This document shows positions 2,119 to 40,878 of a stretch of DNA of 64,000 bases, piece by piece. A program made the translations under genes and the position numbers. Below the pieces are notes generated by a model. The model made no database searches, was not told the origin of the DNA, and was given only the letters and a program-made list of their open reading frames with translations. This stretch comes from an uncultured Alphaproteobacteria bacterium (GTDB lineage Bacteria; Pseudomonadota; Alphaproteobacteria; UBA828), in the NCBI GenBank assembly GCA_913053235.1, contig CAJXFT010000001.1, positions 2,785-66,784 on the forward strand, written 5' to 3'. Position 1 is the first letter of the stretch. Each line of letters begins with the position of its first letter.

Positions 2119-3117
2119 TCAGCTTTCCAGGTCGATGGCGGTGCCGCGCAGGATCGATTGCTGGCACGCCTGCAACACCTTGAGAACGCGGATGCCTTCG
2201 GCGGCACCGGAAGGCGGCTCGGAAATTCCCCCGATGGCATCGAGAAAGGCCTGGCATTCGTTGCGCAGCGGCTCGCTGGCATCGAATTCAAGCGGCTCGG
2301 GCGCCGCCTTGGAGACGATCGGAAGCTCGCCCTCCCAGCCCACCTTGTGGCGGTAGAGGAGCAGTTTTTGCGCCGCATCCCTGGTGTCGTCGAACACGAT
2401 CATCGCCTGTTCGCCGACCACGACGAGTTTCTGCTCCTTAAAGGGATGGAGCCAGGAAACATAGATATGGGCCTGCAGATTGTCATCCATGACGAGGTGC
2501 GACAACGTCGTGTCGGCGACGCCATCGGTCAGATAATTGGCGCCGCTGGCGATCACGCGGCGCGGTATTCCGCCGGCCAATTGCAGGATCATGGAAATGT
2601 CATGCGGGGCAAAAGACCAGAGTGCATTTTCCTCGCGCCTTATTTTGCCCAGGCTCAAACGGTTGGAATAGATGTAGCGCAGTTTGCCCATATGCCCATT
2701 CCGCGCGGTTTCGAGCAGAACCCGGAACGCCGGATGGTAGAGCAGGAGATGCCCGACCATGAGAACCAGGCCTTTTTTTTCGGCCAGCGCCTTTAGTTTT
2801 TCGCCCTCCACGACATCGAGGCAAAGCGGTTTTTCGACAAAAACATGCTTGCCGGCATGGAGCGCGCGCGCCACCAGATCGCCATGGGTGGCGGCCGGCG
2901 TGGCAATCGCCAGCGCCCGGATGGCGCCATCGCCGAGCATCGCCTCGATGTCCCCGTAAACCTCGGCATGGGGATAAAGCGCGGCGTATTTCGCCCGGCT
3001 GTCGGGCGAAATATCGAACAACCCGGCGAGGGAATTCAGGGCATCGAAATTTCGCAACAGGTTCTTGCCCCAATAGCCGGCACCGATCAGCCCGATGCCG
3101 TGGCTGGCGTGATTCAT
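2119..3117 (-). CDS. Gfo/Idh/MocA-family NAD-dependent oxidoreductase (WbpB-like UDP-sugar 3-dehydrogenase)
   Basis: N-terminal Rossmann motif GLIGAGYWGKN and a GFO_IDH_MocA core. ATG at 3117 is preceded by GAGAGGA. It forms a WbpB-WbpD-WbpE-like triad with the two genes downstream. Confidence 0.8.
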   Translation of the reverse strand: MNHASHGIGLIGAGYWGKNLLRNFDALNSLAGLFDISPDSRAKYAALYPHAEVYGDIEAMLGDGAIRALAIATPAATHGDLVARALHAGKHVFVEKPLCLDVVEGEKLKALAEKKGLVLMVGHLLLYHPAFRVLLETARNGHMGKLRYIYSNRLSLGKIRREENALWSFAPHDISMILQLAGGIPRRVIASGANYLTDGVADTTLSHLVMDDNLQAHIYVSWLHPFKEQKLVVVGEQAMIVFDDTRDAAQKLLLYRHKVGWEGELPIVSKAAPEPLEFDASEPLRNECQAFLDAIGGISEPPSGAAEGIRVLKVLQACQQSILRGTAIDLES

Positions 3118-3845
3118 ATCCTCTCTTTCAATTTGCGCGGCGTGTGAACGGCACAATGTGCCGCCAACTCCGTTTCCAATAGTGAAAAGCGCCGGTCCAG
3201 AAATGCGCTCAGCCTGTCCTCCGGCCGGTCACCCTCGCCGACCCACCATATGGCATGGGTCAAGAGCTGCAGCGCCCTGCCCTCGGCGATCGCCGCGTGA
3301 TCCCGGGGGCGGCCGTGGCGCCACGCACCGCGTGAGTCCGAGCAATAGCCGATCTCGTCGAAAAACCGCGATTCATAAGTATTTCCGCGGCCGGCCAGGA
3401 TGCGGTCGTAGGGCCGCAGATTCGGCGAAGGCCGGTGAAAGCTGATCATCGATACGCGCTGTCCGGTGATCGATTCCAGCATTGCGCACTCGCGTTCGAC
3501 CGCCGCCTCCAGTGCCGCGGCGTCGGCGCCGTAAATCGAGGCATCCAGGTGAAGCCCGATTTCATGGCCGGCGCCGGCGATTTCCCGCAATGCGCCGAGG
3601 CCCGCCGGGCTGAACGGATTGTACATTTCGCTGCGCATAAGAACGAAATAGCTGGCGCGCCAGCCCTGCTCCGCTTCCACTGCCGCCAGCCGCGCGGCCG
3701 AGGCAAGGCACTGGTCGATATCATGACGCAGTATCAGATGGCGCCGCGCCGCTCTGGTTTGCGAAAAATCCGTTATCTCATAGCCGCGCGCCAGAATGGC
3801 CGCGATCAGCTCACGATATCCGGCAAGGGTGAATTCAACCGTCAT
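3114..3845 (-). CDS. Putative polysaccharide deacetylase-like protein (WbmS-like)
   Basis: 243-aa ORF with ATGA start-stop overlap to neighbours. Motifs RHDID ... GHEIGLHLD are reminiscent of divergent CE4/polysaccharide deacetylase folds. Assignment is tentative. Confidence 0.4.
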   Translation of the reverse strand: MTVEFTLAGYRELIAAILARGYEITDFSQTRAARRHLILRHDIDQCLASAARLAAVEAEQGWRASYFVLMRSEMYNPFSPAGLGALREIAGAGHEIGLHLDASIYGADAAALEAAVERECAMLESITGQRVSMISFHRPSPNLRPYDRILAGRGNTYESRFFDEIGYCSDSRGAWRHGRPRDHAAIAEGRALQLLTHAIWWVGEGDRPEDRLSAFLDRRFSLLETELAAHCAVHTPRKLKERI

Positions 3846-5691
3846 CGACGACCTCCGAGTAGGAATGGCGCGCCAGCCAACTGGAGATCGTCAACAATTC
3901 GAGCAGGAGTTTGCGGTGGCTGGTGTGCCCGGCGAGATGCTCCTCGACGATCCTTGCCAGGCCCTGGGGGTCGAACAGGCCGCTGTCCAGAAGAGCGGTA
4001 TTTTCCGCCAGACCCCTCAGGCGTTCGACAAAGAATGCGTCGCGGCGCAGCAATTCGTGCAAATTGCTCCAGCTGCCATGGGTCCAGGTGGCGTCCGCCG
4101 GCGGCGCCGGGCGGGCGGACAAACCGACCCGGCGCGCCGCGCCGCGCATAAACATAAGCACGGCCTGCTTGGCGAATCCATTGTTGGCGGAGAGGCCGCT
4201 ATTGGCATCGGGCAGCGCCATCAGATCGGGTGCAAGGCTCTTCATGGCGGCGTGCGCCATGCGCCCGGAGGCGCGCCAGGCGGGTTTCATGGCGTAATAG
4301 AGATCCAATATATCCGGATCGAAGGCGATCGCGCGGTGGGCGATCACCGTATTCATGGCGACGAAATCGTTATAGGCGGTGTGGCGGCCGAGGCAATGCA
4401 AGACAAAGGCATCCCAGGCATTGTAGGGGTCTTCGATATCGGCCGAGGAAAGCGCCAACGCCATGGCGCCGACGCGCCGTTCGTCCCACCCGGCCCGTGC
4501 CCGGGGCGACAGAACGGCCTGCAAGGCGTGCGCGTTCAGGCCGACACGCAAACTGTCGGAAACCGTTTTCGGCTTGCCATCGGGGATGGCGCGAAGCTTC
4601 GGCAAGCGCGTGAGGGAGCCGGCGAGGCGCACCATCGCACAGGGCAGATAATAGCCCCGCAAGGTATAATCCAGACCGTGGCCGGAGAGCAGCACATCAT
4701 GGCTGCGGGCAATATCGGGCAGCGCGCCGAAGAGATTGAACGGCGCCGTAAACAGGCCATCGCTGGCACGGGCGGCGGCGTCGAAATGTGCCGACAAACC
4801 GTGCGGCCGATTCTCGATGTAACGAAACGGCATGTTCGCCATTTGCGCACAGCGCCGTGCGATGCCGACCTCCAGATTGTCGTGGCTGGCAAGGGTCAGG
4901 CACGAGACCTCATGCCCGGCGGCGCGCGCAGCCGCCAGTACCCAGCGCGCATCCAACCCGCCGGACAGCAGCAAACCATGGCGCGCGCTATCGGCGGTGC
5001 GCCGCCTGACGGCGCGCGAAATCCCCTCGGCCAGACGAAGCGCACCTTCCGCCTGGTCGAATTCGGGCGCCCGCCAAACCGGCCGCCGGGTTTCGCGCTC
5101 TTTCCAGCTTTCACCTTCGACGCACCAGATTCGCGCCGCCGGCATGGCGCGAATATCGGCATATTGCGTATGGTCCGAGACCGTCCGCTGATACGACAGC
5201 AGCTCGGTCAGGCCCTGCACGCTGAGGCGCTTCGGCACCCGCTCATCGGCGAGCAAGGCATCGAGCCGCGAGGCCACGGCCAGGTGCCGCCCGTGCCGCC
5301 AAACGAACAAGGTGCGGCTGCCCATTCGGTCCGTGGCAAGAACGATCCGCTTCATCGCCGGATCGACCAGGATTGCCGCAAAGCTGCCGTTCAGCCAGGC
5401 CAGGCGGTCCATCCTGTCGGCATGATAGAGTTCGGCGATTGCCGCCGCGGCATCTTCGAGCGGCCCGCCGTCATCGAATATCTCTCCGTCAACGGCGACC
5501 GTCACCCCCTCGGCGCCATCCTTCAGCGGCTTGTCGCCCGGCAAGCGGGCATGACGGGCGCTGGCGAGTGCGACACCCGGCGCCGGCGCCAGCACTTCCG
5601 TCACCTGACCATGGCGGGCGATGCCGGCAAGCATGGCGGCGGCCGTGGCGCCCGGCTCCGCGGCACCGGCGGCCAAACAAATACCGCTCAT
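3835..5691 (-). CDS. Asparagine synthetase (glutamine-hydrolysing) homolog, WbpS/WbmI-type sugar-uronamide amidotransferase
   Basis: N-terminal MSGICL (class-II amidotransferase Cys2) and the SGGLDARWV PP-loop motif of AsnB. Start ATG at 5691 overlaps the upstream stop as ATGA. Confidence 0.8.
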   Translation of the reverse strand: MSGICLAAGAAEPGATAAAMLAGIARHGQVTEVLAPAPGVALASARHARLPGDKPLKDGAEGVTVAVDGEIFDDGGPLEDAAAAIAELYHADRMDRLAWLNGSFAAILVDPAMKRIVLATDRMGSRTLFVWRHGRHLAVASRLDALLADERVPKRLSVQGLTELLSYQRTVSDHTQYADIRAMPAARIWCVEGESWKERETRRPVWRAPEFDQAEGALRLAEGISRAVRRRTADSARHGLLLSGGLDARWVLAAARAAGHEVSCLTLASHDNLEVGIARRCAQMANMPFRYIENRPHGLSAHFDAAARASDGLFTAPFNLFGALPDIARSHDVLLSGHGLDYTLRGYYLPCAMVRLAGSLTRLPKLRAIPDGKPKTVSDSLRVGLNAHALQAVLSPRARAGWDERRVGAMALALSSADIEDPYNAWDAFVLHCLGRHTAYNDFVAMNTVIAHRAIAFDPDILDLYYAMKPAWRASGRMAHAAMKSLAPDLMALPDANSGLSANNGFAKQAVLMFMRGAARRVGLSARPAPPADATWTHGSWSNLHELLRRDAFFVERLRGLAENTALLDSGLFDPQGLARIVEEHLAGHTSHRKLLLELLTISSWLARHSYSEVVDDG

Positions 5692-7304
5692 CCCGGCGTT
5701 CCCATGAGGAGAGCGCGGCATTCGCCGGGATCGACCCGTTCGGGTTCGCCGCACAGCGCGTTCTCCAGTTCATCCCCGTCCACCAGGGGCCGGTTGCGGG
5801 CATCGAAACGGGCGGCAATGACGTGGCAGCGCCGCGCCACCATATCCTTGACGCGGGCGTTGAACATCGGATTTCCCATATCGATGAAGGTGATCGGGCG
5901 GTCGGTGCAAAGCGCTTCGGCGAAGGTCGTCGACTGGCCGTAATCGAACAGGAAGCGATCCGCCCAGGCGATATGAGATTCAAAGGGCTCCGCACTGGTC
6001 GGCGCGATGTCGGCCAGGGGATGGCGTTGGCCGCGCAACAGGCCCTCGGGATGCGGCTTGCAGATGAGATCAAGCGGCATTTTTTGCACCGCCTCGACGA
6101 GGCGAAACTGCCAATCGAGATAGATGACATCGGGCAGGGTGGGCGGCAGGAACTGCCGTTGGCCACGCAGAATAGTCGGCGCGTAGATCAGTTGAGGCCG
6201 GGCGCCGGCGCGCGCCGGGCGCTCGAGCGTGAGGCCGGCGAGAGCGGACGCACCGACATGGCCGGCGATTTCGGCGCCGGCGCAATTCGCCATGGCGCCA
6301 TTTTCGCTGGCGCTTTTCAAACATTGCGCGCCGGTCGGCGTTTCCACCACATAGCGGTCGCTCACGGCAAGCTCGGAAAAGGCGATGCTGTCCGTGACCC
6401 CGGCCATGCCGGCAAACCAGCCATGCGCAAATCGCGTCACATGGCCGCCCCGGCGGCGCACCTCGATACCTGCGGCGCGCGCCGGATAGTAGCCGCCCGA
6501 GCCCGACCACAGTTTGCGCGGCAATGTCTTGAGCCGGCGCATGCCTTGCAAATCGGAAACCGCCTTCGACAGCGCCGGCGCTATCAAGGGGTTGATCAAC
6601 CGGTCGAGACGCTGGCGATATTCGGGCGCCAATCCTTCGATGCCGGCGAGGCGCGCGGACAGGCGCGCGGCAATTTCTTCGAGCGCGGCCGGCGCCACTT
6701 CCGGCACCGATGCGGTATGCGCCCGCGCGGCCCGAAGCAGGGCCTCGGCATGGAAGAATCTTACCGCCGCGCCGCCGCGCCGCGCCGCATCGCGCAGCAT
6801 GTCATTGTGGCTGACGGCGGTAATCTCCGGTGCCAGCATGGCAACCGGCAAACGCCAGAGCGGCGTCCAACTCGCTGTCCGTGCAAGCCGGCGCAGCGCT
6901 TCGCCGGACGGCGCGCTCATCGGTTTGAACAGGGCCGGATCGCTTAAACCGGATGACCGTTCAATATTCCCGCCGCCGCTCAACGCGGCCAGTTCGGGCG
7001 GGCCACCCAACAACCGCACCCCGCCCGCGTCCGCCGCCTGAACGACGAAGGCGTTCTCCACCAGGCTGCGCGACAGCGCCAGAACGGAGCCGAGGCCAAG
7101 CAATGCCGCCGGCCGCAGAATTTCACCGTCCAGTTGGTCGATAAGGCCGAGCGCCGCGCCGGTGGCGGCGCGGGTGACGCGAAACGCTTCCGCGTAAGGC
7201 AGCGGCCAAGCCACCGATTCACGCCAGTCCGGGGTATCAAGCGCCGCCGGATAGTCGAACGGCGTCGCCGGCGGCGTCATCGCCGCAGGCAGAGAATGCG
7301 CCAT
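5688..7304 (-). CDS. Hypothetical protein, 538 aa, no recognisable domain (glycan-island resident)
   Basis: Long ORF with GC3-rich codon usage, tightly packed in the operon. No motif recognised by eye. Confidence 0.55.
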   Translation of the reverse strand: MAHSLPAAMTPPATPFDYPAALDTPDWRESVAWPLPYAEAFRVTRAATGAALGLIDQLDGEILRPAALLGLGSVLALSRSLVENAFVVQAADAGGVRLLGGPPELAALSGGGNIERSSGLSDPALFKPMSAPSGEALRRLARTASWTPLWRLPVAMLAPEITAVSHNDMLRDAARRGGAAVRFFHAEALLRAARAHTASVPEVAPAALEEIAARLSARLAGIEGLAPEYRQRLDRLINPLIAPALSKAVSDLQGMRRLKTLPRKLWSGSGGYYPARAAGIEVRRRGGHVTRFAHGWFAGMAGVTDSIAFSELAVSDRYVVETPTGAQCLKSASENGAMANCAGAEIAGHVGASALAGLTLERPARAGARPQLIYAPTILRGQRQFLPPTLPDVIYLDWQFRLVEAVQKMPLDLICKPHPEGLLRGQRHPLADIAPTSAEPFESHIAWADRFLFDYGQSTTFAEALCTDRPITFIDMGNPMFNARVKDMVARRCHVIAARFDARNRPLVDGDELENALCGEPERVDPGECRALLMGTPG

Positions 7305-7314
7305 GGCACAGCCA

Positions 7315-8367
7315 TTAGTCGGCCAAATCGGGCCAATCGAGAGGTGTTCCGCGCGCCAGGTCCCTGGCCGCGCGGCGCCCGAGCACGGCGGCGAGATGTT
7401 TGGGCGGCAATCCGTGGCCGGGGCGAATGGAGCGGATATTTTCCACAGTCAGCGATTCGCCGGCCTTGATATCGGCGACCACATAGAGCGAACGCCGCAG
7501 CACGACATTGCCGGCCTCGCTCGGCGCCGGCGCATGATTGCGCTGGCCTATCGCCCGCCATACGATAGCGCAGGCCTTGACCATTTCGGCGAGCTCCTCC
7601 GGCTCGAGCGAAAAGGCCGAATCAAGGCCGCCATCGGCGCGCCGCATGGTCACATGTTTTTCGATGATGGCGGCGCCGAGCGCCACCGCGCCGATCGGTA
7701 CCGCGATGCCCAGCGTGTGATCGGAAAGGCCGCTCACCACATCGTAACGGCCGAGCGCGCCGAGCGCCGCCAGATTGGAATCCTCGGGCGGGGTCGGATA
7801 ACCGCTGGTGCAGTGCAGCAGGGCGATCTCCCGGCAACCGGCGCCACGCGCCGCCGCGACCGCCTCGCCGATCTCTTCGCCGGTGGCCATGCCGGTCGAC
7901 ATAATCAGCGGCTTGCCGGTCGCCGCCATGCGCTCGATAAGCGGCAAATCGACGATCTCGAACGAAGCGACCTTGTATGCCGGCGCATCGAGCTTCTCAA
8001 GAAAATCCACGGCCGTCGGATCGAACGGGCTCGAGAAGATCGTGATTCCCAGCTCGCGCGCCTTGGCGAACAGGTCGGCGTGCCAGTGCCAGGGCGTGAA
8101 GGCTTCCTGGTACAATTCATAAAGCGTTCGGCCATGCCACAACCCGCCCTCGATGGTGAAGCCCGGGCCGTCATGATCGATGGTGATGGTATCGGCGGTA
8201 TAGGTCTGAATCTTGATGGCATCGGCGCCGGCCTGCTTGGCCGCGGTCATGAGCCGAAAGGCCTGCTCGATATCGCCGCGGTGATTGGCGGACAGTTCGG
8301 CGACGATATAGGGCGGCGCGCCGGCGCCGATGGCGCGCCCGGCGATGCTGATGCGGCTGCCGTTCAT
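7315..8367 (-). CDS. pseI: Pseudaminic acid synthase (NeuB-family, PseI-like)
   Basis: IVAELSANH, AIKIQTYT, GGLWHGRTLYELY, FSSPFD, AYKVASFE and GLSDHT are colinear with C. jejuni PseI. ATG at 8367 by codon arithmetic. Confidence 0.8.
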   Translation of the reverse strand: MNGSRISIAGRAIGAGAPPYIVAELSANHRGDIEQAFRLMTAAKQAGADAIKIQTYTADTITIDHDGPGFTIEGGLWHGRTLYELYQEAFTPWHWHADLFAKARELGITIFSSPFDPTAVDFLEKLDAPAYKVASFEIVDLPLIERMAATGKPLIMSTGMATGEEIGEAVAAARGAGCREIALLHCTSGYPTPPEDSNLAALGALGRYDVVSGLSDHTLGIAVPIGAVALGAAIIEKHVTMRRADGGLDSAFSLEPEELAEMVKACAIVWRAIGQRNHAPAPSEAGNVVLRRSLYVVADIKAGESLTVENIRSIRPGHGLPPKHLAAVLGRRAARDLARGTPLDWPDLAD

Positions 8368-8368
8368 A

Positions 8369-9040
8369 TCAGCGCAGCTCCCGAATGACCGAAAACGCCT
8401 CGGCCGCGACACAGCCGACGCTGGCGCCGCGCAGCGCGGCAAGAGCGCGGACGGCTTCCTCGGAACGGGCATGCGGAGACGGCCGCATCTCGCTCGCATA
8501 GGCAGCAAGCGCGCACATTTTGGCCTCCATATAAGCCGTCACATCGACGAACAGATTGGGGCGAAATGCGGCATGCGCGCCGCTCACCGCCCATTCGGTG
8601 CTGGACACCGTCTCAAAGGCATAGATGGCGCGCACCGCGGCACCGGGCAGCGGGCGGCAGGCGGTCGCCACCGCCTCGCAGGCAATGCGGTGATCTATGT
8701 TGAGGTCGCCGCCATGATGGGTATAGACGATTTCCGGCGCCACGCCTTCGACCACGGCTTCGATGGGTTTGACGATATCCAGCATTTCCATGCCGTCGAG
8801 GCGATTGTCGGGGAAACCGGCGAAGCGCGGCGCCTCGGCGCCGACCGCGCGCGCCGCCTGCCCGGCCGCACCCTCCAACGCTTCCAGCGCGCCGGCCGCG
8901 ATAGCGCCGCGCGCCGCCAGGCCGGTGGCGAGGATCAATATATGCACCCGATCCCCGGCGTCGGCGTGGCGTGCCAGCGTCGCGCCGCAACCGAGAATCT
9001 CATCATCCGGATGCGCCGCCACAACGAGAATTTCGCTCAT
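8369..9040 (-). CDS. PIG-L/LmbE-family N-acetylglucosaminyl deacetylase
   Basis: MSEILVVAAHPDDEILGCG signature (HPDDE). ATG at 9040 overlaps the upstream stop. Confidence 0.8.
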   Translation of the reverse strand: MSEILVVAAHPDDEILGCGATLARHADAGDRVHILILATGLAARGAIAAGALEALEGAAGQAARAVGAEAPRFAGFPDNRLDGMEMLDIVKPIEAVVEGVAPEIVYTHHGGDLNIDHRIACEAVATACRPLPGAAVRAIYAFETVSSTEWAVSGAHAAFRPNLFVDVTAYMEAKMCALAAYASEMRPSPHARSEEAVRALAALRGASVGCVAAEAFSVIRELR

Positions 9041-9807
9041 GCCGCCACCTTGCGGCCGATCGCCGCCATGACATGCTTCTCCAAAACGAACTCGCCGTGA
9101 CGCTCGAAATGAGCCGCGAGATCGCGCGCCACCGCGGCCTCGTGCGGGGCGCTGAAGAATGTCGAATTGCGCCAATAGTCGAGCAGCGCGGCGGGGCTCG
9201 GATAGCGCACCGGGTTGACGAATGTTTGCGTTTCCAGGCGCAGCTCACGCGCCATGACGGGCAGAACGGTTTCGGTCATGAAATCGGCGGCGCTGGAAAG
9301 CACCGCCGGCGGAACTTCAAAATGGCGCCGCAGAAGCTCGAACAGGGCGGAATTGTTGCTGCCATGCGGGCCGACGATCAGCAGCGCGCCACCCTCGGCG
9401 CAGCGTGCCATCATTTGCGCCATAATCCGCGCCGCATCTTCGGCGTAGTAGAGGCCGTAAAAACACGAGACCAAATCGAACTTGCGCTCGACGATGGCGG
9501 CGTGCGCGAAGGCCGTTTCCATGGCTGTCTCGACGAGGTCGCAAGAGACATCGAGCGCATCGAGACGCGCTTGCGCCTTGGCCAGCGATGCGGCGGATAT
9601 ATCGACCCCGACCAGATCCGTGACATCCGGCCGGGCGCCGTAGAGCGCCAATTGATTTCCGGTGCCGCAACAGATGTCGAGCACGCTGGCAAACGATAAT
9701 TGGTCCAGTATGGCACCGACCCAGCCGTCGAAATCGGCGCCCGCGAAACGCTTGTTGCCGGCCGCGCGGGCGCTCAGGAAATCACTGTTCGTAGCCCGAT
9801 CGCTCAT
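9037..9807 (-). CDS. Class I SAM-dependent methyltransferase
   Basis: VLDICCGTGNQL motif I and a Rossmann-like fold. ATGA overlaps on both sides. Confidence 0.75.
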   Translation of the reverse strand: MSDRATNSDFLSARAAGNKRFAGADFDGWVGAILDQLSFASVLDICCGTGNQLALYGARPDVTDLVGVDISAASLAKAQARLDALDVSCDLVETAMETAFAHAAIVERKFDLVSCFYGLYYAEDAARIMAQMMARCAEGGALLIVGPHGSNNSALFELLRRHFEVPPAVLSSAADFMTETVLPVMARELRLETQTFVNPVRYPSPAALLDYWRNSTFFSAPHEAAVARDLAAHFERHGEFVLEKHVMAAIGRKVAA

Positions 9808-11363
9808 CGTACCGCCTTCTTCAAAATGCCGGGGAAAGCCGCTTCATCGCCGCCCCGGCTGAGATACCACTTTCCCTCGGGACGATAGCCGGCCGCGGCA
9901 AACAAAGCGTGCGACGCCTGGTTCCCGGCCAGCACTTCGGCGCGCAGTTCGGCCTCGGGCAGAAGGCGGCGCGCCAGCGCCAGCGCCGCGCCGCCAATGC
10001 CCAACCGCCAGCGCTCCGGCGCCACATATATGGAAACTTCGTAAGCGCCACCTTCCATGCCGCTTTCGAGGCGCAATACACCGGCCGGCTCGTGGCCATG
10101 CATTATGATATTGAACAGACAATCAGGATCGCCAAGCCGGCCGTCGAACCAGGCCCGGTGTTCGTCCGCCGAGGGTGCCTCGGGCACGCGGAAATGGCGC
10201 CGTGTGCGTGCATCGCGCTGCCAGGCCAGCAGGCGATCGGCATCGCCGGCGGCGGCGGGGCGCAGACGAATGGCGACGCCATCATGGGCGGCCGGCGGAT
10301 CGAGGGCCGCGATGAGGCGCCCGGCGCCGAGTCCATCGCACAGACAAGCCGCCGCCCGCGCCATCTCGCGCCGCGCCATGCCGTCCTCCAGCAAATTATG
10401 CAATGCATCGATCAGCCGGCCATCGCTGAAATTTCCGGCCCCGTCCAGGACCCCGGCCCCGTCCAGGACAATTGCCGCGCCCGCGCCGCGCAGGCTTTCG
10501 GCCACCGCATGCTGGTTTTCGGCGCTGCATATCACGATCGACGGCAGGCCGAGGCAACAGCGCTCCCAGGCCCCGCCGCCGCCGGCGCCGAGCGCCACAT
10601 CGGCTTTGCACAGCAGCCCGGCGACATCTTCAATCGCGACATGAAGCGACGCCGGAAAGGGCGCCATCGCCGCCTTGGCGCGCACCGCCTCGAGATGAGG
10701 CGCGGCGCCGCCGAGCAATATATCGACCGCGAGTCGCCAATCGGCGCGCGCCAGGATGTCGAGCACCGCCGAGGTGATATTGGTAGGATCGGTGGCGCCA
10801 AAGGAGAGCAGCAGCCGACGCGGCCTGTCATTTTTTTGGCGCCGTACCAGGGCGGTCCGGCGCAGCGCCGCGAACGACGAACGCAACGGAAGATAGGCCG
10901 GACCGAGCAACTGCATGCAGCCTTTAGGGACGAGAGCGGCATAATCGTCATCTCCACGGCATGCCGCCGGGTCGAGCAGCATATCGCAATCATGGCGGCG
11001 GTCGGCGAGATCGTCGAAGGCCAGGATTCGCCGCGCCCAGGGGCGGCACGAGCGCTCGAATACCGCGTCCCTGCCATAATGATCCGTCACCAACAGGTCG
11101 GCGCCCTCGGGCCAGCGCGCGGCCAGCTCGCCCGCTTCCGCCAGCGCGTCGCCGTTCAGTTGCACGGCCGCGATGGCGGCCGGCCAGGGCGACGGCAGCG
11201 CATCACTCGCGCCGCGCCCGCTGACCAGCACGCAGCGCCATCCCGCCGCCGCAAGCGCGCGGGCGAGCGAAAGACAGCGCGCCGCGTGGCCCGCCCCGAT
11301 CGCGGCGGTGGCATCGGCGCGGAATATGGCGAGGCGGGGCTCAGCCGGCATCGGCGCGCTCAC
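9804..11363 (-). CDS. pseG: PseG (UDP-2,4-diacetamido-2,4,6-trideoxy-L-altropyranose hydrolase) fused to a C-terminal GNAT N-acetyltransferase (PseH-like)
   Basis: N-terminal ~350 aa is a GT-B/PseG-like fold (LAIFRADATAAIGAGHAARCLSLARAL ... LGAGGGGAWERCCLGLPSIVI). C-terminal ~150 aa is a GNAT fold (LRPAAAGDADRLLAWQRD...IYVAPERWRLGIGGAAL). Confidence 0.75.
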   Translation of the reverse strand: MSAPMPAEPRLAIFRADATAAIGAGHAARCLSLARALAAAGWRCVLVSGRGASDALPSPWPAAIAAVQLNGDALAEAGELAARWPEGADLLVTDHYGRDAVFERSCRPWARRILAFDDLADRRHDCDMLLDPAACRGDDDYAALVPKGCMQLLGPAYLPLRSSFAALRRTALVRRQKNDRPRRLLLSFGATDPTNITSAVLDILARADWRLAVDILLGGAAPHLEAVRAKAAMAPFPASLHVAIEDVAGLLCKADVALGAGGGGAWERCCLGLPSIVICSAENQHAVAESLRGAGAAIVLDGAGVLDGAGNFSDGRLIDALHNLLEDGMARREMARAAACLCDGLGAGRLIAALDPPAAHDGVAIRLRPAAAGDADRLLAWQRDARTRRHFRVPEAPSADEHRAWFDGRLGDPDCLFNIIMHGHEPAGVLRLESGMEGGAYEVSIYVAPERWRLGIGGAALALARRLLPEAELRAEVLAGNQASHALFAAAGYRPEGKWYLSRGGDEAAFPGILKKAVR

Positions 11364-12033
11364 CCTTTACGCAGTATGCCGTCGGCGTCGGGCTGGCCGG
11401 GAGCAATCTAAGCCGGGGCGGCTGTTCGAGCGTCGCAAAGACCTCATCCACCGCATCCGATTCTCCCCACCGGCCCACCGCATATTCGTCGAATACGGCA
11501 ATGCCGCCATTGACGATGCGCGGCCAGGCGCCGGCGAGAAGTTTCGCGGTCGGCAGATAGACATCCAAATCGCAATGCAGAAGACTGATGCGGAAGCCCG
11601 GGTTTTCGGCAAGATAGCGCGGAAATTCGCTGACGATGTCGCCCTTGATCAGCTCGACCCGATGGCCGAGGCCGAGGCGATCCAGCGCCGCCACGAGATT
11701 GTCATAGGCGCTGGCGTCATAGCTGGTCTGATGTATTTCGACGGCGCCGCGCTCATCCGCGCGGGCGTGCGTGAATTCTTCTTCAAACGTATCGAAAGCA
11801 ATAATCCTGGTGCGCGAATTGGGCTGATAGGTTTCCAGTAAATGGGCCCAGAGAATAGTGCTGGTTCCCTTATAGACACCCGCGTCAACGATATCGCCGG
11901 GCACATCCATGACCATGCGAAACAGGTCATGGCGGGCGAACATCTTCTGGAAGCGATGTTTGTCGCAATGGAAATAAAAGTTGTGGTACACCTGCCACAT
12001 GTCGGTATCGAAGGGATCGGATTCTTTGTTCAT
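11341..12033 (-). CDS. TylF/MycF-family (macrocin-O-methyltransferase-like) SAM-dependent methyltransferase
   Basis: DVPGDIVDAGVYKGTSTIL and LHCDLDVY motifs of the TylF family. First gene of operon B. Confidence 0.75.
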   Translation of the reverse strand: MNKESDPFDTDMWQVYHNFYFHCDKHRFQKMFARHDLFRMVMDVPGDIVDAGVYKGTSTILWAHLLETYQPNSRTRIIAFDTFEEEFTHARADERGAVEIHQTSYDASAYDNLVAALDRLGLGHRVELIKGDIVSEFPRYLAENPGFRISLLHCDLDVYLPTAKLLAGAWPRIVNGGIAVFDEYAVGRWGESDAVDEVFATLEQPPRLRLLPASPTPTAYCVKGERADAG

Positions 12034-12098
12034 CCTGATTTATCCATTCGTTTTGGTAACGCTTTGAGCCTCAATTTCGCCAGGCTGGCGCACGCATC

Positions 12099-13694: not shown

Positions 13695-13731
13695 AGCGCA
13701 CCGGCAGCGGCATCGGTCTGCCCGTGCCGCC

Positions 13732-15897
13732 TCATTCGGAGAAAACCGGCTGTCCGGCATTGAGCTCGGCCCGCAACATGTCCTGAATGACGTCACGCAT
13801 GAACCAATCCGGCAGCGCCTCGCCGGCGCGCAGCGCCTGGCGCATGTCGGTGCCGCTGATCGGCTCCAGCGTTTCAGCCGCGCCGAGCGCCACATACGCC
13901 TCGGCTTTCGGATCATAGCCGATAGCGTCGAAGAAAATCGGCGTGAGGCCGATATCGCCCAGACTGTCGAACAGGGCGGGAATTTCCTCTGCCGCATAGA
14001 AATCGCCGACGCCGGTATGGTCGCGCCCGACGATGAAATGGGAGCAGCCCATGTTCTTGCGGCAAAGCGCCGTGAAAACCGCCTCGCGCGGGCCGGCATA
14101 GCGCGAATAGGTGGCGAAGCTGCCGAGCACCACCTTGCCCGCCGGGTAAAGCCCCCCGTCCAGCATCATCTGATAGCTGCGCATGATCGGCTCGGGCAGA
14201 AAATCGCCTGATTTCTTGGGCCCGATGACGGGGCTTACATAAAGGCCATCGGCGCCGCTCCGCTCCAATGCGCTGAGCTGAATATGTTCATGCACCCGGT
14301 GAATGACATTGCGGGTATGAAAGCCGACCACCCGGTTCCAACCCTTATGCGAAAAGACGAAGCGCGTCTGCGCCGGGGTAAGTTCGAATTGGCGATAGGG
14401 CGACGGCAGGCGCGCGAACAGGGTGATATCGCCGCCGACAAGATGGCCGCCGCCGCCGGCCAAGCGCGCCACGCCGGGATGATCCATCGAGGCGGTACCG
14501 AACCAGGGCTCGACAACGGCGTCGAAATCGAGCGCATAGACCTCGGCGACGTCGAGCAGCGCATGCGCGACGCCGGCCTCGCTCTTGAGCAGGATGCGCT
14601 CGCCGGGGTGAATTTCGCCGGCCCGGACGCTGTCGACCTGAAGCACGATCGGCAGGGTCCAGGCCTCGCCTTGCGGCAGGCGGTTGTCGCGCAACACCGA
14701 GCGCAACATTTCCTGGGTCATGAATCCGGTGAGCGGCGAATAGGTGCCGTGGGCGATCTGCTGGCAGTCCATCAACACGTTGTGCTCAACGGTGAGGCTG
14801 GCGAGGCGGGCGAGTTCCGCCGCCGCCGGCGCCTCCTGCTCGCGGTGCACAAGCCGGCCGCCATGCGGCTCGACCAGGAGCGACGCCGATTCGAGATCAT
14901 AGCCGCCCGCCGCGGCTTCGGGGCCGGCTTCGTATTCGCGAATCAATTTTACGATCATGCTGGCGCAGCCGATGGGATGCGCGCCGATCGCCGTTTCCGC
15001 CGCCAGCACCAAGCCGTCGACGCCATCGACGAGCGTGTTGTAGACGTCATTGACCTCGGCGCGGGTCGGGCCGGGCGCGGTGATCATCGATTCCAACAGA
15101 TTGGTCGCCACATAGACCTTGCGTCCGGCCACCTTGGCGATGCGCACAATATGTTTTTGCAATGCCGGAATGCGCTCGACCGGCAATTCGCGCGACAGGT
15201 CGCCGCGGTCGATCAGCAGGCCATCGGATTTCGCCGCGATCTCGGCCAGATTGTGGAGGCCGTTGCGGCACTCGATTTTCGAAATCACAAATGTCTCGGC
15301 GCCGACGATCTCGCGGATGGCATCGACATCCGTTTCCCTGTTGGCGAAAGACAGGGCGGCATGTTCGAGGCCCTTGTCGCGGCCGATCCGGAGCGCGGCA
15401 CGGTCCTTGTCCGTCAATGGCGGCATATCGATCGGCCGCTCGACCGTTACCGCCTTGTTCTGACCGATGACGCCGCCGGTCAACACGCGCATCATCGCGC
15501 CCGCCGCCGTTATCTCGATCACCTGCACCAGCACGGCGTTGAAGTCGATGCTGATAAAATCTCCGACTTCGAGAGAATCGACGATGCCATGGGGGTAGAA
15601 GTTGAGGGTTTGGGCATCGCCGGCCACGGTCTCTCGGCGGGCGCAAATGACGGTGCTCTCCTGTACCGCCACACTGCCTTGCGCCAGGCTGCCGGTGCGA
15701 ATTTGCGCGCCTTCGCTGTCGAGGCAGACCGGCACCGCGCTGTGCGATTGAATGAAATCGATGACCGCGGCGACGTCCTCGAGTTTTGTGTGCGACAGGT
15801 TGATGCGGAACAATGTCGCGCCGAGCTCCTCGAGGCGGTTCAACACCCTTTTGTTCATCGAAGCGGGGCCGAGGGTGCAGAATAAATCTTTAGCCAT
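13732..15897 (-). CDS. Fusion protein: N-terminal pyruvate-kinase catalytic barrel (no C-terminal allosteric domain) + C-terminal complete ATP sulfurylase (sulfate adenylyltransferase)
   Basis: aa 1-~335: CTLGPAS...FRINLSHT (PK K+ site), ISKIECRNG (PK IENxxG), IDRGDLS, and ATNLLESMITAPGPTRAEVNDVYNTLVDGVDGLVLAAETA (PK Mg/PEP site). aa ~340-721: PUA-like domain, VGFHTRNVIHRVHEHI (ATP sulfurylase QTRNxxHRAHE motif) and FIVGRDHTGVG (GRDHAG motif). Confidence 0.85.
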   Translation of the reverse strand: MAKDLFCTLGPASMNKRVLNRLEELGATLFRINLSHTKLEDVAAVIDFIQSHSAVPVCLDSEGAQIRTGSLAQGSVAVQESTVICARRETVAGDAQTLNFYPHGIVDSLEVGDFISIDFNAVLVQVIEITAAGAMMRVLTGGVIGQNKAVTVERPIDMPPLTDKDRAALRIGRDKGLEHAALSFANRETDVDAIREIVGAETFVISKIECRNGLHNLAEIAAKSDGLLIDRGDLSRELPVERIPALQKHIVRIAKVAGRKVYVATNLLESMITAPGPTRAEVNDVYNTLVDGVDGLVLAAETAIGAHPIGCASMIVKLIREYEAGPEAAAGGYDLESASLLVEPHGGRLVHREQEAPAAAELARLASLTVEHNVLMDCQQIAHGTYSPLTGFMTQEMLRSVLRDNRLPQGEAWTLPIVLQVDSVRAGEIHPGERILLKSEAGVAHALLDVAEVYALDFDAVVEPWFGTASMDHPGVARLAGGGGHLVGGDITLFARLPSPYRQFELTPAQTRFVFSHKGWNRVVGFHTRNVIHRVHEHIQLSALERSGADGLYVSPVIGPKKSGDFLPEPIMRSYQMMLDGGLYPAGKVVLGSFATYSRYAGPREAVFTALCRKNMGCSHFIVGRDHTGVGDFYAAEEIPALFDSLGDIGLTPIFFDAIGYDPKAEAYVALGAAETLEPISGTDMRQALRAGEALPDWFMRDVIQDMLRAELNAGQPVFSE

Positions 15898-16675
15898 GTT
15901 GCTCGTTTCTCACATTCGGTTGTTGGTTGAGGGCGCCGAAAGGGGCCGCCTTGGTGGCGCCGTGACGCGAGAGATTGATCTCCGCGATTTCGGGATGGTC
16001 GGCGAGAACGCCCAACACGGCGGCCATGGCATGGCCTTCCGCGCCGCCCGGGAGGTGGCGGAACAAGGCTTTGAGGAAGGCGTAATCCTCGGGGTAATCG
16101 AGGGTCCAGCGCGTCGTGCCCGGCAGGCCCGGCGGCGCCGCAAGGTTGGCGCGCGCTATTTCGGCCGCCTCGCGCATCCACGGCGAGACATGCTCGCGTT
16201 CGAAGCTGCGCGCGGCATTGGCGTCGGCGGCGTTCAGCGCCGCCCGGGTGAAGGCTTCGCAGTCGAGCCCGTGCGGCCAGGAGGGCGGCATATTGTTGGC
16301 CGCGTAGCCGGCGCCGGTGCGCTTGCGCAGATCGAGCAGCGCGCCGCATATCGCCGGGTCGATGGCCGGGCAATCGCTGGTCACGCGGAGCACCACATCG
16401 GCTTCCAGCTCTTGCGCCGCGCCGGCGTAGCGCGCCAGCACATCCTCGGCCGGGCCGCGATAGGCCGCGGCGCCGTGGCGCGCCGCTTCCGCCGCCACGA
16501 CATCATCCTCGGCCAGATCCGTCGTCGCGCAACACACGTCATCAACGCCCGCTATGGCCGCGCACCGCGTCAGCACATGGCCGAGCACGCTTTGCGCCGC
16601 CAGCGGCAGAAGAATTTTCCCGGGCAGGCGTGTCGATCCCATGCGCGCCTGAACGATAGCGACCGTCCGTCCCAT
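15890..16675 (-). CDS. Acylneuraminate/pseudaminate cytidylyltransferase-like (SpsF/PseF family)
   Basis: MGRTVAIVQARMGSTRLPGKIL. ATG at 16675 overlaps the upstream stop as ATGA. A TTG 14 codons upstream is an alternative start. Confidence 0.75.
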   Translation of the reverse strand: MGRTVAIVQARMGSTRLPGKILLPLAAQSVLGHVLTRCAAIAGVDDVCCATTDLAEDDVVAAEAARHGAAAYRGPAEDVLARYAGAAQELEADVVLRVTSDCPAIDPAICGALLDLRKRTGAGYAANNMPPSWPHGLDCEAFTRAALNAADANAARSFEREHVSPWMREAAEIARANLAAPPGLPGTTRWTLDYPEDYAFLKALFRHLPGGAEGHAMAAVLGVLADHPEIAEINLSRHGATKAAPFGALNQQPNVRNEQHG

Positions 16676-17877
16676 CAGCCGACGCAAGAAAGCACCGCAT
16701 CGATGACGCGCCGGCAATCGGAATCGGTCATTGCCGGAAACAACGGAATGGTAAGGGCGGCATCGTAATAGGCCTCGGACTCGGGAAAATCGCCCCGCTT
16801 GTAGCCAAATTTTTCCCGATAGTAGGGCTGTAGGTGAAGCGGAATGTAATGCACATGCACGCCAATCTTGCGGGCGCGAAGCTGCTCAAAAATCCGCCGC
16901 CGGCTTTTGCGCAAACGGTCGCGCCGCAGGCGCAGCATATAGAGGTGCCAGGCGCTCTCGCGGTCGCTCTCCTGATGCGGCGGAATGAGCAGTTCGGACT
17001 GGCCGAAGGCGGCGCTGTAGCGCGCCGCGATCTCGCGGCGGCGCGCCAGAAAGCCGTCGAGCTTGGCCAATTGGCTGAGCCCGAGGGCGCATTGGATATC
17101 GGTGACGCGGTAGTTGAAACCCAATTCCTGCATTTCGTAATACCAGGGTGCTCGGTCGCTCGCATTGGCTTTGGCATGGCCGCCGCCATCCTTGTCGGCG
17201 GCCTGGGAGGCGAGACGCATGGCGGCGCCGTCATTGGTGATGCCATGGGTGCGGAAGAGGCGCAGCGCGGCGGCGAGATCGTCATCGTCGGTGGCGATCA
17301 GGCCGCCCTCGCCCATCGCCACGGCTTTGACCGGATGGAAGGAAAAAATGCTCATCGCCGCCAGCGAGCCGACGCTACGGCCCTTATAGGTCGCTCCCAG
17401 GGAGTGCGCGGAATCCTCGATAACCGTGATGCCGTGGCGCGCGGCGATTTCGTTGATCTCGTCCATGTCGGCCGGCTGGCCGGTATAATCGATCGGGATG
17501 ATGGCCTTGGTCTTGGCCGTGATGGCGGCCTCGAGCCTGGCTGGATCGAGGCAGTAGGTATCGCGACGGATATCGGCAAATTTAACCTCGGCGCCGAGAT
17601 AAAGCGCGCAATTGCCGCTCGCCGCGAAGGTGATCGGCGCGGTGATCACCTCATCGCCCGGGCCGACGCCCGCGGCATAACAGGCGCAGTGGAGCGCCGC
17701 CGTGCCGGTGGCGACGGCAATGCCGTGGCGGGCGCCGACACGCGCCGCGACGGCCGCCTCGAAGGCGGCAATGTTGGGCCCCTGGGTGAGCCAATCGCCG
17801 CGCAATACCTCGACCACCGCCGCGATATCGTCCTCGTCGAGGCTTTGGCGGGCATAGGGAATAAAGGCTTCGCTCAT
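16675..17877 (-). CDS. pseC: DegT-family aminotransferase, PseC-like (UDP-4-amino-4,6-dideoxy-N-acetyl-beta-L-altrosamine transaminase)
   Basis: MSEAFIPYARQSLDEDDIAAVVEVLRGDWLTQGPNIAAFE... is colinear with PseC, including the SIFSFHPVK Lys region. ATG at 17877. Confidence 0.8.
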   Translation of the reverse strand: MSEAFIPYARQSLDEDDIAAVVEVLRGDWLTQGPNIAAFEAAVAARVGARHGIAVATGTAALHCACYAAGVGPGDEVITAPITFAASGNCALYLGAEVKFADIRRDTYCLDPARLEAAITAKTKAIIPIDYTGQPADMDEINEIAARHGITVIEDSAHSLGATYKGRSVGSLAAMSIFSFHPVKAVAMGEGGLIATDDDDLAAALRLFRTHGITNDGAAMRLASQAADKDGGGHAKANASDRAPWYYEMQELGFNYRVTDIQCALGLSQLAKLDGFLARRREIAARYSAAFGQSELLIPPHQESDRESAWHLYMLRLRRDRLRKSRRRIFEQLRARKIGVHVHYIPLHLQPYYREKFGYKRGDFPESEAYYDAALTIPLFPAMTDSDCRRVIDAVLSCVG

Positions 17878-23636: not shown

Positions 23637-23640
23637 TGCC

Positions 23641-25085: not shown

Positions 25086-25095
25086 CGGCCACAGC

Positions 25096-27422: not shown

Positions 27423-27439
27423 GGCGCTCTCATGGCGCT

Positions 27440-40871: not shown

Positions 40872-40878
40872 TACCAAG

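Follow-up and report, generated by a model that had tools for sequence, protein, structure and literature searches.

The locus described here raises the question of what is made of the nonulosonic acid (NulO) that its genes produce, and whether the protein encoded by one of them, without any assigned function, is the enzyme that transfers it. The window, by which we mean the whole 64,000-nucleotide stretch of DNA that was analysed, contains around this target gene an operon with PseC-type aminotransferases, a PseG-PseH fusion, PseI, a CMP-transferase and methyl-, acyl- and amido-modifying enzymes, within a surface-polysaccharide region that has an ABC exporter, a Wzy_C-domain protein and GT2/GT4 genes (Table 1). 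Enzymes that attach NulOs (pseudaminic, legionaminic and related acids) are far less known than those that make them (PMC5420450, PMC7439481), a gap that limits both chemo-enzymatic glycan synthesis and the reading of surface-glycan gene clusters. An earlier note on this DNA had named the target as a candidate for the missing transferase of the system, for example a sulfo- or a nonulosonyl-transferase. The second form is the one that agrees with the GT-B fold, the H...HP layout and the NulO context reported below, while the first found no profile or fold match. We consider the target a putative CMP-pseudaminic-acid-dependent glycosyltransferase, an assignment that we hold to be probable, if only just.

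Table 1. The target gene, its domains and motifs, and neighbouring genes (positions in the window; residues of the target protein).
Feature	Position	Strand	Basis
243-aa protein without profile match	3114..3845	(-)	profile scan
AsnB-like glutamine amidotransferase (Asn_synthase + GATase_7)	3835..5691	(-)	Pfam
Target gene, 538 aa, ATG start	5688..7304	(-)	ORF list and translation
ATGA stop/start overlap, target / downstream AsnB-like gene	5688..5691	(-)	read in sequence
C-terminal Rossmann lobe, residues 361-538; proposed nucleotide-donor lobe	5691..6224	(-)	AF2 model
R-R492-C-R, residues 491-494	5823..5834	(-)	conservation
F-E442...A-D449-x-F-x-F-D454-x-x-x-S458-T459-T460-F, residues 441-461	5922..5984	(-)	model, conservation
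K-P-H-P-E-G 'HP motif', residues 416-421, directly after strand 412-415	6042..6059	(-)	sequence, conservation
N-terminal Rossmann lobe, residues 257-360; strands 264-267, 288-292, 317-320, 345-348	6225..6536	(-)	AF2 model
F-[D/E/A]-H-G-G motif, residues 292-296, directly after strand 288-292	6417..6431	(-)	model, conservation
Gly-rich loop W-S-G-[ST]-G-G...R276, residues 266-276, after first strand	6477..6509	(-)	conservation
Extra N-terminal domain, residues 1-256, mostly helical; family-invariant W33-P34, R138	6537..7304	(-)	AF2 secondary structure, conservation
Pseudaminic acid synthase PseI	7315..8508	(-)	TIGR03586, 477 bits vs cut-off 340
PseG hydrolase fused to GNAT N-acetyltransferase	9804..11363	(-)	TIGR03590, 224 bits vs cut-off 153.55
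Unassigned protein, co-travels with sulfurylase across loci	12030-14099		
PK/PUA/ATP-sulfurylase gene, same operon as target	13732-15897		
CMP-NulO synthetase candidate (CTP_transf_3), proposed donor supplier	15890..16717	(-)	Pfam

The target gene is real and under purifying selection. Compared with four orthologues (58-79% identity), it differs much more at third codon positions (0.38-0.57) than at first and second ones (0.11-0.31), and this excess, together with the full-length homologues and a confident AF2 model, establishes the minus-strand frame. The GC3 of 0.76 falls among the values of the flanking genes (0.72-0.79), in line with the codon-usage match reported in the earlier note, and both gene junctions that it had described are confirmed in the sequence: the plus-strand 'tcat' at 5688-5691 is ATGA on the minus strand, with the target TGA stop at 5690-5688 and the ATG of the AsnB-like ORF at 5691-5689, and on the other side a 10-nt gap lies between the TAA of the upstream NeuB-family ORF (7317-7315) and the target ATG at 7304. 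The PseI coordinates correspond to the longest ORF, its true start being probably further downstream. An antisense ORF of 524 aa that overlaps the target (5373..6947, plus strand) is absent among the ORFs passing the GC3/GC2 filter, and for this reason it was treated as a high-GC shadow ORF. The target protein has 57.6 kDa and a pI of 7.7, and is soluble, without predicted transmembrane segments.

As far as profile libraries are concerned, the earlier statement that the protein has no recognisable domain holds, with no matches to Pfam-A or NCBIfam at E<=1, including the Pfam models of bacterial sialyltransferases (GT38/GT52/GT80/PF05855). The target belongs to a family of full-length proteins of ~530 aa. 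At least 2,018 cluster representatives of this family exist, most of which come from alphaproteobacterial MAGs, with Nitrospirales too, and all named members are labelled "hypothetical". A related-locus search with the single target protein gave seven MAG loci; a further word-indexed homologue search, run with the core alignment, retrieved nothing but shorter family fragments, none of them a named relative, and tblastn against 72,556 plasmids gave no match. The protein itself, a profile of the full family and one of the C lobe only were searched against PDB sequences and returned nothing below E=0.06, and the matches to 3kq5 (E 0.06), 3iht (E 0.36) and 6rqa (E 1.8) were judged spurious. Similarly, a Pfam scan of 52 family members produced only noise (DUF6365 in four of them at 1.6e-3 and single matches to unrelated families), without matches to sialyltransferase-family models at E<=0.1, and an hhalign comparison of the family profile with the Capsule_synth protein of the window found no relation between them.

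The sole NCBIfam model matched by family members is TIGR04331, 'LIC12162 family transferase' (19 of the 52, best E 5e-6), and PF27859 ('LIC12162') is recorded on some family members. The name of both models comes from LIC12162 of Leptospira interrogans, a putative transferase. The TIGR04331 matches score about 15-25 bits against a cut-off of 225 bits; those listed individually score about 14-22 bits and span the HP-motif region of the family members, and the target itself gives no match at E<=1. The relationship is one of remote homology only, between distant sister families rather than within one family. The literature on LIC12162, TIGR04331 and TIGR04326 yielded one passing mention and no characterisation.

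The structure is more informative than the profiles. In the AF2 model and its structure matches, all of them to GT-B and other Rossmann-type domains, the target has a GT-B fold, made of two Rossmann-like alpha/beta lobes with a cleft between them, and a core-only model (residues 257-538) reproduces the GT-B matches by itself. This fold also occurs in hydrolases and epimerases. Residue conservation, computed over 187 family members, is complete for H294 (100%) and nearly so for R276, P419, D449 and R492 (99%) and for H418, D454, R138 and G286 (98%); in the model the conserved residues sit at the C-terminal ends of strands or at helix N-termini in both lobes. Within residues 441-461 the acidic residues are found at strand ends and the S-T-T at a helix N-terminus. 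The motif at H294 is D (61%), A (14%) or E (10%) followed by H (100%) and G (83%), and reads A-H-G in the target. The Gly-rich loop, the [D/E/A]-H-G and the K-P-H-P-E-G are strongly conserved, and the earlier impression that glycosyltransferase motifs were missing has to be abandoned.

H294 in the N lobe and H418-P419 in the C lobe are 124 residues apart in the target (family median 124, range 116-131), and they were compared with TarL/TagF by topology and spacing only. The essential histidines of TarL, H300 and H433, are 133 residues apart, H433 contacting the alpha-phosphate of the cytidine nucleotide, and the two catalytic histidines of TagF are separated by 140 residues (PMC10901376). In the Neisseria meningitidis polysialyltransferase there are 125 residues from E153 to H278-P279, and the HP motif binds CMP-Neu5Ac (PMC2169525). 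This HP motif, defined for bacterial sialyltransferases in the same work, is present in the C lobe of the target family (H in 98% and P in 99% of the 187 members). At the equivalent spacing (124) the family lacks the classical D/E-D/E-G sialyltransferase motif, an invariant His standing in place of the second acidic residue. The two-histidine/HP layout is typical of cytidine-nucleotide-dependent GT-B transferases, and spacing and topology suggest that H294 and H418 are equivalent to the catalytic residues of the known enzymes.

The gene context, studied in 15 loci, points in the same direction. A NeuB/PseI synthase accompanies the family gene in 14 of them, i.e. in nonulosonic-acid clusters, the exception being a 5.8-kb contig (L004), and a CMP-transferase (CTP_transf_3) was called in the window, in the P0092 contig and in each of the seven loci for which a Pfam gene table was available. 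We surveyed hydrolases and transferases in seven loci, namely the window plus the six that combine full flanks with a gene table (L001, L003, L012-L015). None of these seven has a Maf, GT52/GT80, Capsule_synth or Glyphos_transf gene in its table, which leaves the family as the only candidate NulO transferase there; in L001 and L013, which have a complete NulO pathway and an exporter, no other glycosyltransferase-like gene lies within +/-10 kb. A flagellin transferase of the Maf or FlmG type was rejected, with no such domains in the target and no flagellar genes among the scanned window genes or the seven loci with gene tables.

In the mechanism that we propose, for which we infer donor, acceptor, residue roles and stereochemistry, the target would be a cytoplasmic, metal-independent GT-B-fold glycosyltransferase using a CMP-activated pseudaminic acid derivative supplied by the surrounding operon, and would transfer the nonulosonic acid to an acceptor glycan, probably lipid-linked, assembled at the inner face of the membrane. 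The C-terminal Rossmann lobe would bind CMP, with E442 and D449/D454 making ribose and base contacts, the helix N-terminus at S458-T459-T460 binding phosphate and R492 contacting a carboxylate or phosphate. By analogy with the HP motifs above, H418-P419 may contact the CMP phosphate and leaving group (PMC2169525, PMC10901376), and H294, which belongs to the N-lobe [D/E/A]-H-G loop, may act as the general base that activates the acceptor hydroxyl, as a counterpart of TarL H300 and of E153 in the meningococcal enzyme (PMC10901376, PMC2169525). The extra 256-residue N-terminal domain could serve in acceptor recognition. There is a precedent in Tannerella, where TagB-like GT-B proteins with HP motifs are genetically proven Pse/Leg transferases (PMC5420450).

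A more specific possibility, unlikely in our opinion, is that this hitherto unrecognised glycosyltransferase family, which matches no Pfam or NCBIfam glycosyltransferase model and would combine a histidine general base with the HP motif, does not make single additions but polymerises a modified pseudaminic (or legionaminic) acid homopolymer or another NulO-rich polymer, as a non-sialic counterpart of polysialyltransferase. The N-terminal domain would then handle the anionic chain as it grows, and export of the product would fall to the recurrent MsbA/PglK-type ABC exporter. An N-terminal domain plus GT-B architecture is common to TagF-like polymerases and compatible with such a role, as are the arginine richness of the target (49 Arg vs 8 Lys, with many invariant arginines) and the lone glycosyltransferase-like gene beside pathway and exporter in L001 and L013.

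The frequent company of modifying genes would also fit a sugar-modifying role, in which the target, together with the AsnB-like amidotransferase and the 243-aa protein, binds CMP-Pse (or an intermediate that bears Pse) and presents it to be amidated or acylated, or itself adds a non-carbohydrate substituent; we give this a rather low probability. The target is translationally coupled to the AsnB-like gene by the ATGA overlap, such a gene occurs in nine of the 15 loci, in most cases directly after the family gene, and homologues of the 243-aa protein are found downstream in seven loci besides the window. In L012, L013 and L015 the family gene is immediately preceded by WbuX/HisH/HisF amidotransferase genes, and family genes are fused to a formyltransferase domain (P0092) and to a weak GNAT-like domain (P0083). 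However, the AsnB-like gene was not found in the remaining six loci (L001, L008, L010 and L011 among them), these clusters already have dedicated enzymes for acyl, formyl and amidino transfer, and fusion and coupling are common for any genes of one pathway, while the GT-B fold with conserved strand-end residues in both lobes points to a catalytic site. For the Tannerella transferases it was shown that the CMP-Pse pool of mutants keeps all its modifications (PMC5420450).

It seems equally improbable that the target is a TagF-like phosphotransferase or polymerase, with a CDP- or CMP-activated non-sugar donor (CDP-glycerol, CDP-ribitol or CMP-aminoethylphosphonate), which would place a phospho-substituent on the glycan by attack on phosphorus and not on the anomeric carbon. 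In TagF-like enzymes the attack is on phosphorus and CMP leaves the CDP donor, and their pair of catalytic histidines may have a counterpart in H294 and H418, which lie in different lobes of the target. Against this option, Glyphos_transf (PF04464) was matched by no family member even at E<=0.1, phosphonate genes are more than 30 kb away, CDP-alcohol and phosphonate genes are absent from the tables of L001, L003 and L012-L015, and it is the NulO synthase and the CMP-NulO synthetase that invariably accompany the family.

We also give little credence to a GT-B enzyme that is not a transferase but works on some nucleotide sugar of the NulO pathway, either a hydrolysing 2-epimerase or nucleotidase (a NeuC/LegG/PseG analogue) or a CMP-NulO hydrolase/epimerase, a role that the fold itself would allow. 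A separate PseG- or NeuC-type hydrolase was identified in four of the seven surveyed loci, namely the window (PseG above cut-off), L001 (a PseG-like gene), L013 (a PseG-GNAT fusion) and L003 (an Epimerase_2 gene); the step is already covered there, so the target is not the GT-B-fold hydrolase of its pathway and replacement of PseG/NeuC was rejected. In L012, L014 and L015 an unassigned gene of ~330-350 aa could be the hydrolase. No family member matched the PseG (TIGR03590), NeuC or Epimerase_2 models, and those hydrolases have neither the extra domain of 256 aa nor the many conserved arginines.

Finally, a sulfotransferase using activated sulfate from the PK-ATP-sulfurylase fusion protein can be practically discarded on fold and co-occurrence: the target shares its operon with the sulfurylase gene and no recognised sulfotransferase appeared among the operon-B proteins scanned against Pfam, but neither the target nor the 52 members match Sulfotransfer_1/2/3 profiles, none of the listed structure matches (GT-B or Rossmann-type) is a sulfotransferase, the co-occurrence with PK-sulfurylase homologues that the earlier note proposed to check is limited to three of the 15 loci (L005, L007 and L008, the closest relatives with enough flank), the gene not being found at the others, the family tracks NulO genes instead of sulfate activation, and the unassigned protein that travels with the sulfurylase is a better candidate.

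If the target is indeed a CMP-NulO transferase, a new transferase family would be added, represented by at least 2,000 sequence clusters that have escaped Pfam and NCBIfam, and its variant active site, in which His replaces Asp/Glu, would allow a mechanistic comparison with sialyltransferases and TagF-like enzymes. A function would also be suggested, by extension, for the related LIC12162 family, found in Leptospira and adjoining neuABC-type genes in a clinical Herbaspirillum strain (PMC6679464), whose TIGR04331 profile has 585 positions compared to the ~530 aa of the target family.

Among known systems, the GT38, GT52 and GT80 sialyl- and polysialyltransferases (N. meningitidis polyST, PmST1, Mannheimia haemolytica SiaD 5wc6) have no sequence or profile similarity to the target family, and differ from it in using D/E-D/E-G where the family has an invariant His as second residue, in lacking the additional 256-aa N-terminal domain, and in their donor, Neu5Ac, the presumed donor here being pseudaminic acid (another NulO elsewhere). 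No PF05159 profile match or profile-profile similarity links the family to KpsC/KpsS (Capsule_synth, GT107; Kdo/NulO transferases). Unlike TagF/TagB/TarL and the Tannerella forsythia proteins Tanf_01245 and TFUB4_00887, the family has no match to the Glyphos_transf/TagB profile; the Tannerella Pse/Leg transferase genes are about 446 codons (1338 bp) long and encode a TagB domain that occupies the N-terminal part. FlmG and Maf differ from the target in their profiles, as TPR, GT41-like and MAF_flag10 matches are absent from it, but, as proposed for the target, they are transferases dedicated to Pse/Leg whose genes accompany NulO pathways, and FlmG combines an acceptor-binding N-terminal domain with a GT-B donor domain (bioRxiv 10.1101/2022.03.25.485807).

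ORF listing and translation gave the target gene as it had been described in the earlier note, a 538-aa frame on the minus strand starting with ATG and tightly linked to both of its neighbours. The 'tcat' at 5688-5691 holds its TGA stop together with the ATG of the AsnB-like gene downstream (an ATGA overlap), and the PseI gene upstream ends in a TAA at 7317-7315, 10 nt from the ATG of the target. Its composition is also that of the flanking genes (GC3 of 0.76 vs 0.72-0.79). Compared with orthologues from four other loci, which have 58-79% amino-acid identity to the target, the differences per codon position (1/2/3) were 0.16/0.11/0.38, 0.17/0.12/0.46, 0.19/0.17/0.46, and 0.31/0.30/0.57. Third-position differences dominate, so the minus-strand frame is the real one and is under purifying selection. 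An overlapping antisense ORF of 524 aa is missing from the GC3/GC2-filtered set and was for this reason taken as a high-GC shadow ORF. The protein (57.6 kDa, pI 7.7) is strikingly rich in arginine (49 Arg vs 8 Lys), and it has no hydrophobic segment of the length needed to cross a membrane (maximum Kyte-Doolittle 19-residue mean of 1.29).

All operon genes around the target are encoded on the minus strand, and neighbours either overlap or are only a short distance apart (see table). This is a pseudaminic acid (Pse) operon already equipped with its own GT-B-fold hydrolase, PseG, and among the operon proteins scanned there was no other candidate Pse transferase. We can only speculate that the oxidoreductase and DegT genes downstream, which are WbpB/WbpE-like, provide a 2,3-diamino sugar for the same glycan. 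The window as a whole is a surface-glycan region, also containing a GT2, a Wzy_C-domain protein and a carbamoyltransferase, together with genes for nucleotide-activated phosphonate (aminoethylphosphonate-type) glycan decoration at 39093-42015. A second nonulosonic acid (NulO) pathway, of the legionaminic or sialic type (Leg/Neu), suggests that the organism produces two distinct NulOs.

Features of the window in and around the pseudaminic acid operon
Feature	Position	Strand	Remarks
WbuX-type N-acetyl-sugar amidotransferase, HisF-like cyclase, Antibiotic_NAT	22377-25923	-	TIGR03573, 357 bits; Antibiotic_NAT is aminoglycoside 3-N-acetyltransferase-like, another lies in the NulO cluster carrying the fused family member P0092
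Fused ABC_membrane/ABC_tran exporter (MsbA/PglK-type)	19836-21674	-	
Cupin/FdtA-like protein		-	between exporter and CTP_transf_3 gene
CBS + NAD-dependent epimerase/dehydratase		-	after Cupin/FdtA-like gene
DegT aminotransferase		-	before CTP_transf_3 gene
CTP_transf_3 CMP-transferase	15890-16717	-	
PK-barrel/PUA_2/ATP-sulfurylase fusion, 721 aa	13732-15897	-	within Pse operon
ORF up to 689 aa	12030-14099	-	no Pfam or NCBIfam match
TylF methyltransferase		-	between 12030-14099 ORF and PseG-GNAT
PseG fused to GNAT	9804-11363	-	TIGR03590, over cut-off
Methyltransferase		-	after PseG-GNAT
PIG-L deacetylase		-	before PseI
PseI	7315-8508	-	TIGR03586, 477 bits vs cut-off 340
Target gene	5688..7304	-	
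Antisense ORF	5373..6947	+	overlaps target
AsnB-like amidotransferase	3835..5691	-	directly downstream of target
243-aa protein	3114-3845	-	no profile or PDB match
GFO/IDH/MocA oxidoreductase, then DegT aminotransferase		-	after 243-aa gene
Second NulO pathway, Leg/Neu type	25920-32379	-	CBS + nucleotidyltransferase, DegT, hexapeptide acetyltransferase, NeuB, Epimerase_2
640-aa protein with weak Capsule_synth (KpsC/KpsS-like) domain		-	after second NulO pathway
HTH_24 gene	38205-38825		
PEP mutase fused to MobA-like nucleotidyltransferase, then TPP-dependent decarboxylase	39093-42015	+	
543-aa ORF	46459-48090	+	polysaccharide region; no Pfam match
1636-aa ORF	56092-61002	-	polysaccharide region

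That the protein has no recognisable domain, as noted earlier by eye, holds for the profile libraries, with zero Pfam-A and zero NCBIfam matches at E<=1, and sequence searches with the protein, with the family profile and with a C-lobe profile detected no solved structure. When 5.8 billion proteins were searched by word index, 69 matched; they come from metagenomes and alphaproteobacterial MAGs, nearly all of them of ~520-550 aa and spanning 95-100% of the target; a match from Tara Oceans station 037 (mesopelagic) has 100% identity over 91% of it. An exhaustive HMM search through 1.84 billion cluster representatives retrieved 2,018 matches (E<=1e-3), of which 780 have E<=1e-30, and those listed are mostly full length; the family is thus sizeable, coherent and of a single architecture. 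The only name given by any source is "hypothetical protein". Close relatives in species-representative genomes, all of them MAGs, belong to Rhizobiaceae, unclassified Alphaproteobacteria, Pseudolabrys, Undibacter, and one Nitrospirales. There is one copy of the family gene per locus and no paralogue of the target within the window. Two members carry fused N-terminal domains, a formyltransferase in P0092 (793 aa) and a weak GNAT-like one in P0083 (726 aa). In the P0092 contig the family gene comes directly after a CMP-transferase gene, and a second gene, of 528 aa and without a Pfam match, might be a paralogue.

Some relationship to described families could be traced through the other members. 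Nineteen of the 52 aligned members matched TIGR04331 ("LIC12162 family transferase", best E of 5e-6), the only NCBIfam family matched among them; the matches listed individually span the HP-motif region (see below), and some members bear a precomputed PF27859 "LIC12162" tag. Their scores are an order of magnitude under the 225-bit cut-off and the target itself gave no match; it is distantly related to the LIC12162 family and does not belong to it. That family, too, is uncharacterised, and the only mention of it found in the literature is a gene of this type beside neuABC in a clinical Herbaspirillum strain, a possible sialic-acid transferase (PMC6679464).

The AlphaFold2 model, built from a 52-sequence alignment, has a pLDDT of 91.8 and a pTM of 0.91. 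Foldseek gave only weak matches to the PDB (best E of 1e-3, TM about 0.3), and nearly all of those listed are GT-B enzymes, including a TagF-like capsule polymerase, GT1 UGTs, BshA, MurG, and PglA, as well as UDP-sugar 2-epimerases, WbbB, KpsC, and TagF/TarL. Residues 257-538 thus make up a compact, divergent GT-B core, preceded by an additional, mostly helical domain (residues 1-256). No close solved structure was found in the PDB, and a sub-clade is thus not assignable from structure alone.

Conservation among 187 family members is concentrated in a few motifs, which we have placed on the secondary structure of the model. H294 is conserved in 100% of them, R276, P419, D449, and R492 in 99% each, H418, D454, R138, and G286 in 98% each, P34 in 97%, and W33, E442, T459, and G287 in 95% each. 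In GT-B enzymes the active site is found where, in the two lobes, strands have their C-terminal ends and helices their N-termini. In the model, W-S-G-[ST]-G-G-x-[YW]-x-x-R276 runs from the loop after the first N-lobe strand into the N-terminus of a helix, R-R-G-G-x-V-x-R-F-[D/E/A]-H294-G-G directly follows strand 288-292, [KRQ]-P-H418-P419-[EG]-G directly follows strand 412-415, and A-D449-V-F-V-F-D454-x-x-x-S-T-T-F covers a strand and then a helix N-terminus; two shorter motifs are F-E442 and R-R492-C-R. The spacing from H294 to H418-P419 is 124 residues in the target, also the family median (range 116-131).

We have compared the surroundings of the family gene in 15 loci (L001-L015), through Pfam gene tables for L001-L004, L012-L015, and the P0092 contig, and by tblastn with the window proteins for L005-L011. 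Of the 15, all except L004, a 5.8-kb contig, have a NeuB-family synthase (14 loci), and a CTP_transf_3 CMP-transferase is found in every gene-table locus, the window and the P0092 contig, with homologues of the window gene in several of the remaining loci. The synthase is of the PseI type in the window and L012-L015, and of the NeuB/LegI type in L003, while for L001 and L009-L011 it is ambiguous; the family thus goes with NulOs at large and is not confined to Pse. L001, L003, and L013 have a separate PseG- or NeuC-type gene, and L012, L014, and L015 each have an unassigned pathway gene of ~330-350 aa that might do the same job. The gene tables list no Maf, GT52/GT80, Capsule_synth or Glyphos_transf gene for any locus. 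Other partners are recurrent, not universal. The AsnB-like gene is found in nine loci, usually just downstream of the family gene, and homologues of the 243-aa protein in seven besides the window. By tblastn, L003 and L005-L009 have such a homologue downstream of the family gene, usually after the AsnB-like gene; the three genes form a recurrent module. In L013 the gene next after the AsnB-like one is unassigned and of 267 aa. WbuX/HisH/HisF-type amidotransferase genes are immediately upstream of the family gene in L012, L013, and L015, the fused ABC exporter is shared by the window, L001, L010, L012, L014, and L015, and a small NusG-like protein and HTH_24 regulator pair heads the cluster in L001, L012, and L015.

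The earlier note had proposed the protein as the missing transferase, in a sulfo- or a nonulosonyl form. Only the second form is supported: the best explanation is a CMP-nonulosonate-dependent glycosyltransferase, with the modified CMP-Pse of the operon as donor here, a prediction that we favour with modest confidence because of the GT-B fold, the two-histidine/HP layout of a cytidine-nucleotide type, the constant presence of NulO synthase and CMP-NulO synthetase, and the existence of a separate hydrolase with no other candidate transferase. A NulO polymerase, as a non-sialic analogue of polysialyltransferases, seems doubtful. A TagF-like phosphotransferase with a CDP- or CMP-activated non-sugar donor is improbable. 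We give equally little credit to a non-transferase GT-B enzyme of the pathway, PseG being already present, and to a tailoring partner of the AsnB-like amidotransferase, its frequent neighbour in nine of 15 loci. A sulfotransferase is very improbable indeed; the suggested co-occurrence with PK-sulfurylase homologues turned out negative, as these are found (72-90% identity) only with the three closest relatives having enough flank, L005, L007, and L008. The 12030-14099 protein is a better candidate for a sulfate-related transferase. Its gene accompanies the PK-sulfurylase and TylF genes in the same three loci. Read at full length, the ORF runs over the 3' end of the sulfurylase gene, the true start being probably downstream. 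In L013 a Sulfatase-family gene occupies the place corresponding to the sulfurylase, and a 500-aa unassigned gene adjoins TylF. For the preferred CMP-nonulosonate transferase, a soluble enzyme together with an ABC exporter invites the speculation that assembly takes place on the cytoplasmic side, with a lipid as carrier.

Bacterial GT-B sialyl- and polysialyltransferases bind the phosphate of CMP-Neu5Ac through the "HP" motif, and their catalytic acid/base comes from a D/E-D/E-G motif ~125 residues upstream (the meningococcal enzyme has E153 and H278-P279, PmST1 has H311; PMC2169525). TagF-like enzymes, which like the former use cytidine-nucleotide donors, have two invariant and essential histidines, the N-lobe one being the base (TarL H300, TagF H444) and the one in a C-lobe loop touching the alpha-phosphate of the nucleotide (TarL H433), and their polymerases have an additional N-terminal domain whose fold varies (PMC10901376). 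By spacing and topology, not superposition, the target would combine the HP motif (H418-P419) of the sialyltransferases with the histidine base of the TagF-like group (putatively H294), which it also resembles in joining an N-terminal domain to a GT-B core; unlike the sialyltransferase motif set, it has a His where the Asp/Glu stands. We consider the family a well-supported, testable candidate for a scarce enzyme class, the assignment being a prediction. The family itself has no class in Pfam or NCBIfam, no name and no characterised member, and in structure it is far from any solved enzyme. The kind of enzyme, a GT-B transferase with a CMP-activated NulO donor, is already known: in Tannerella forsythia the Pse and Leg transferases, established by genetics, are GT-B proteins of the TagB-like sort and have HP motifs (PMC5420450).
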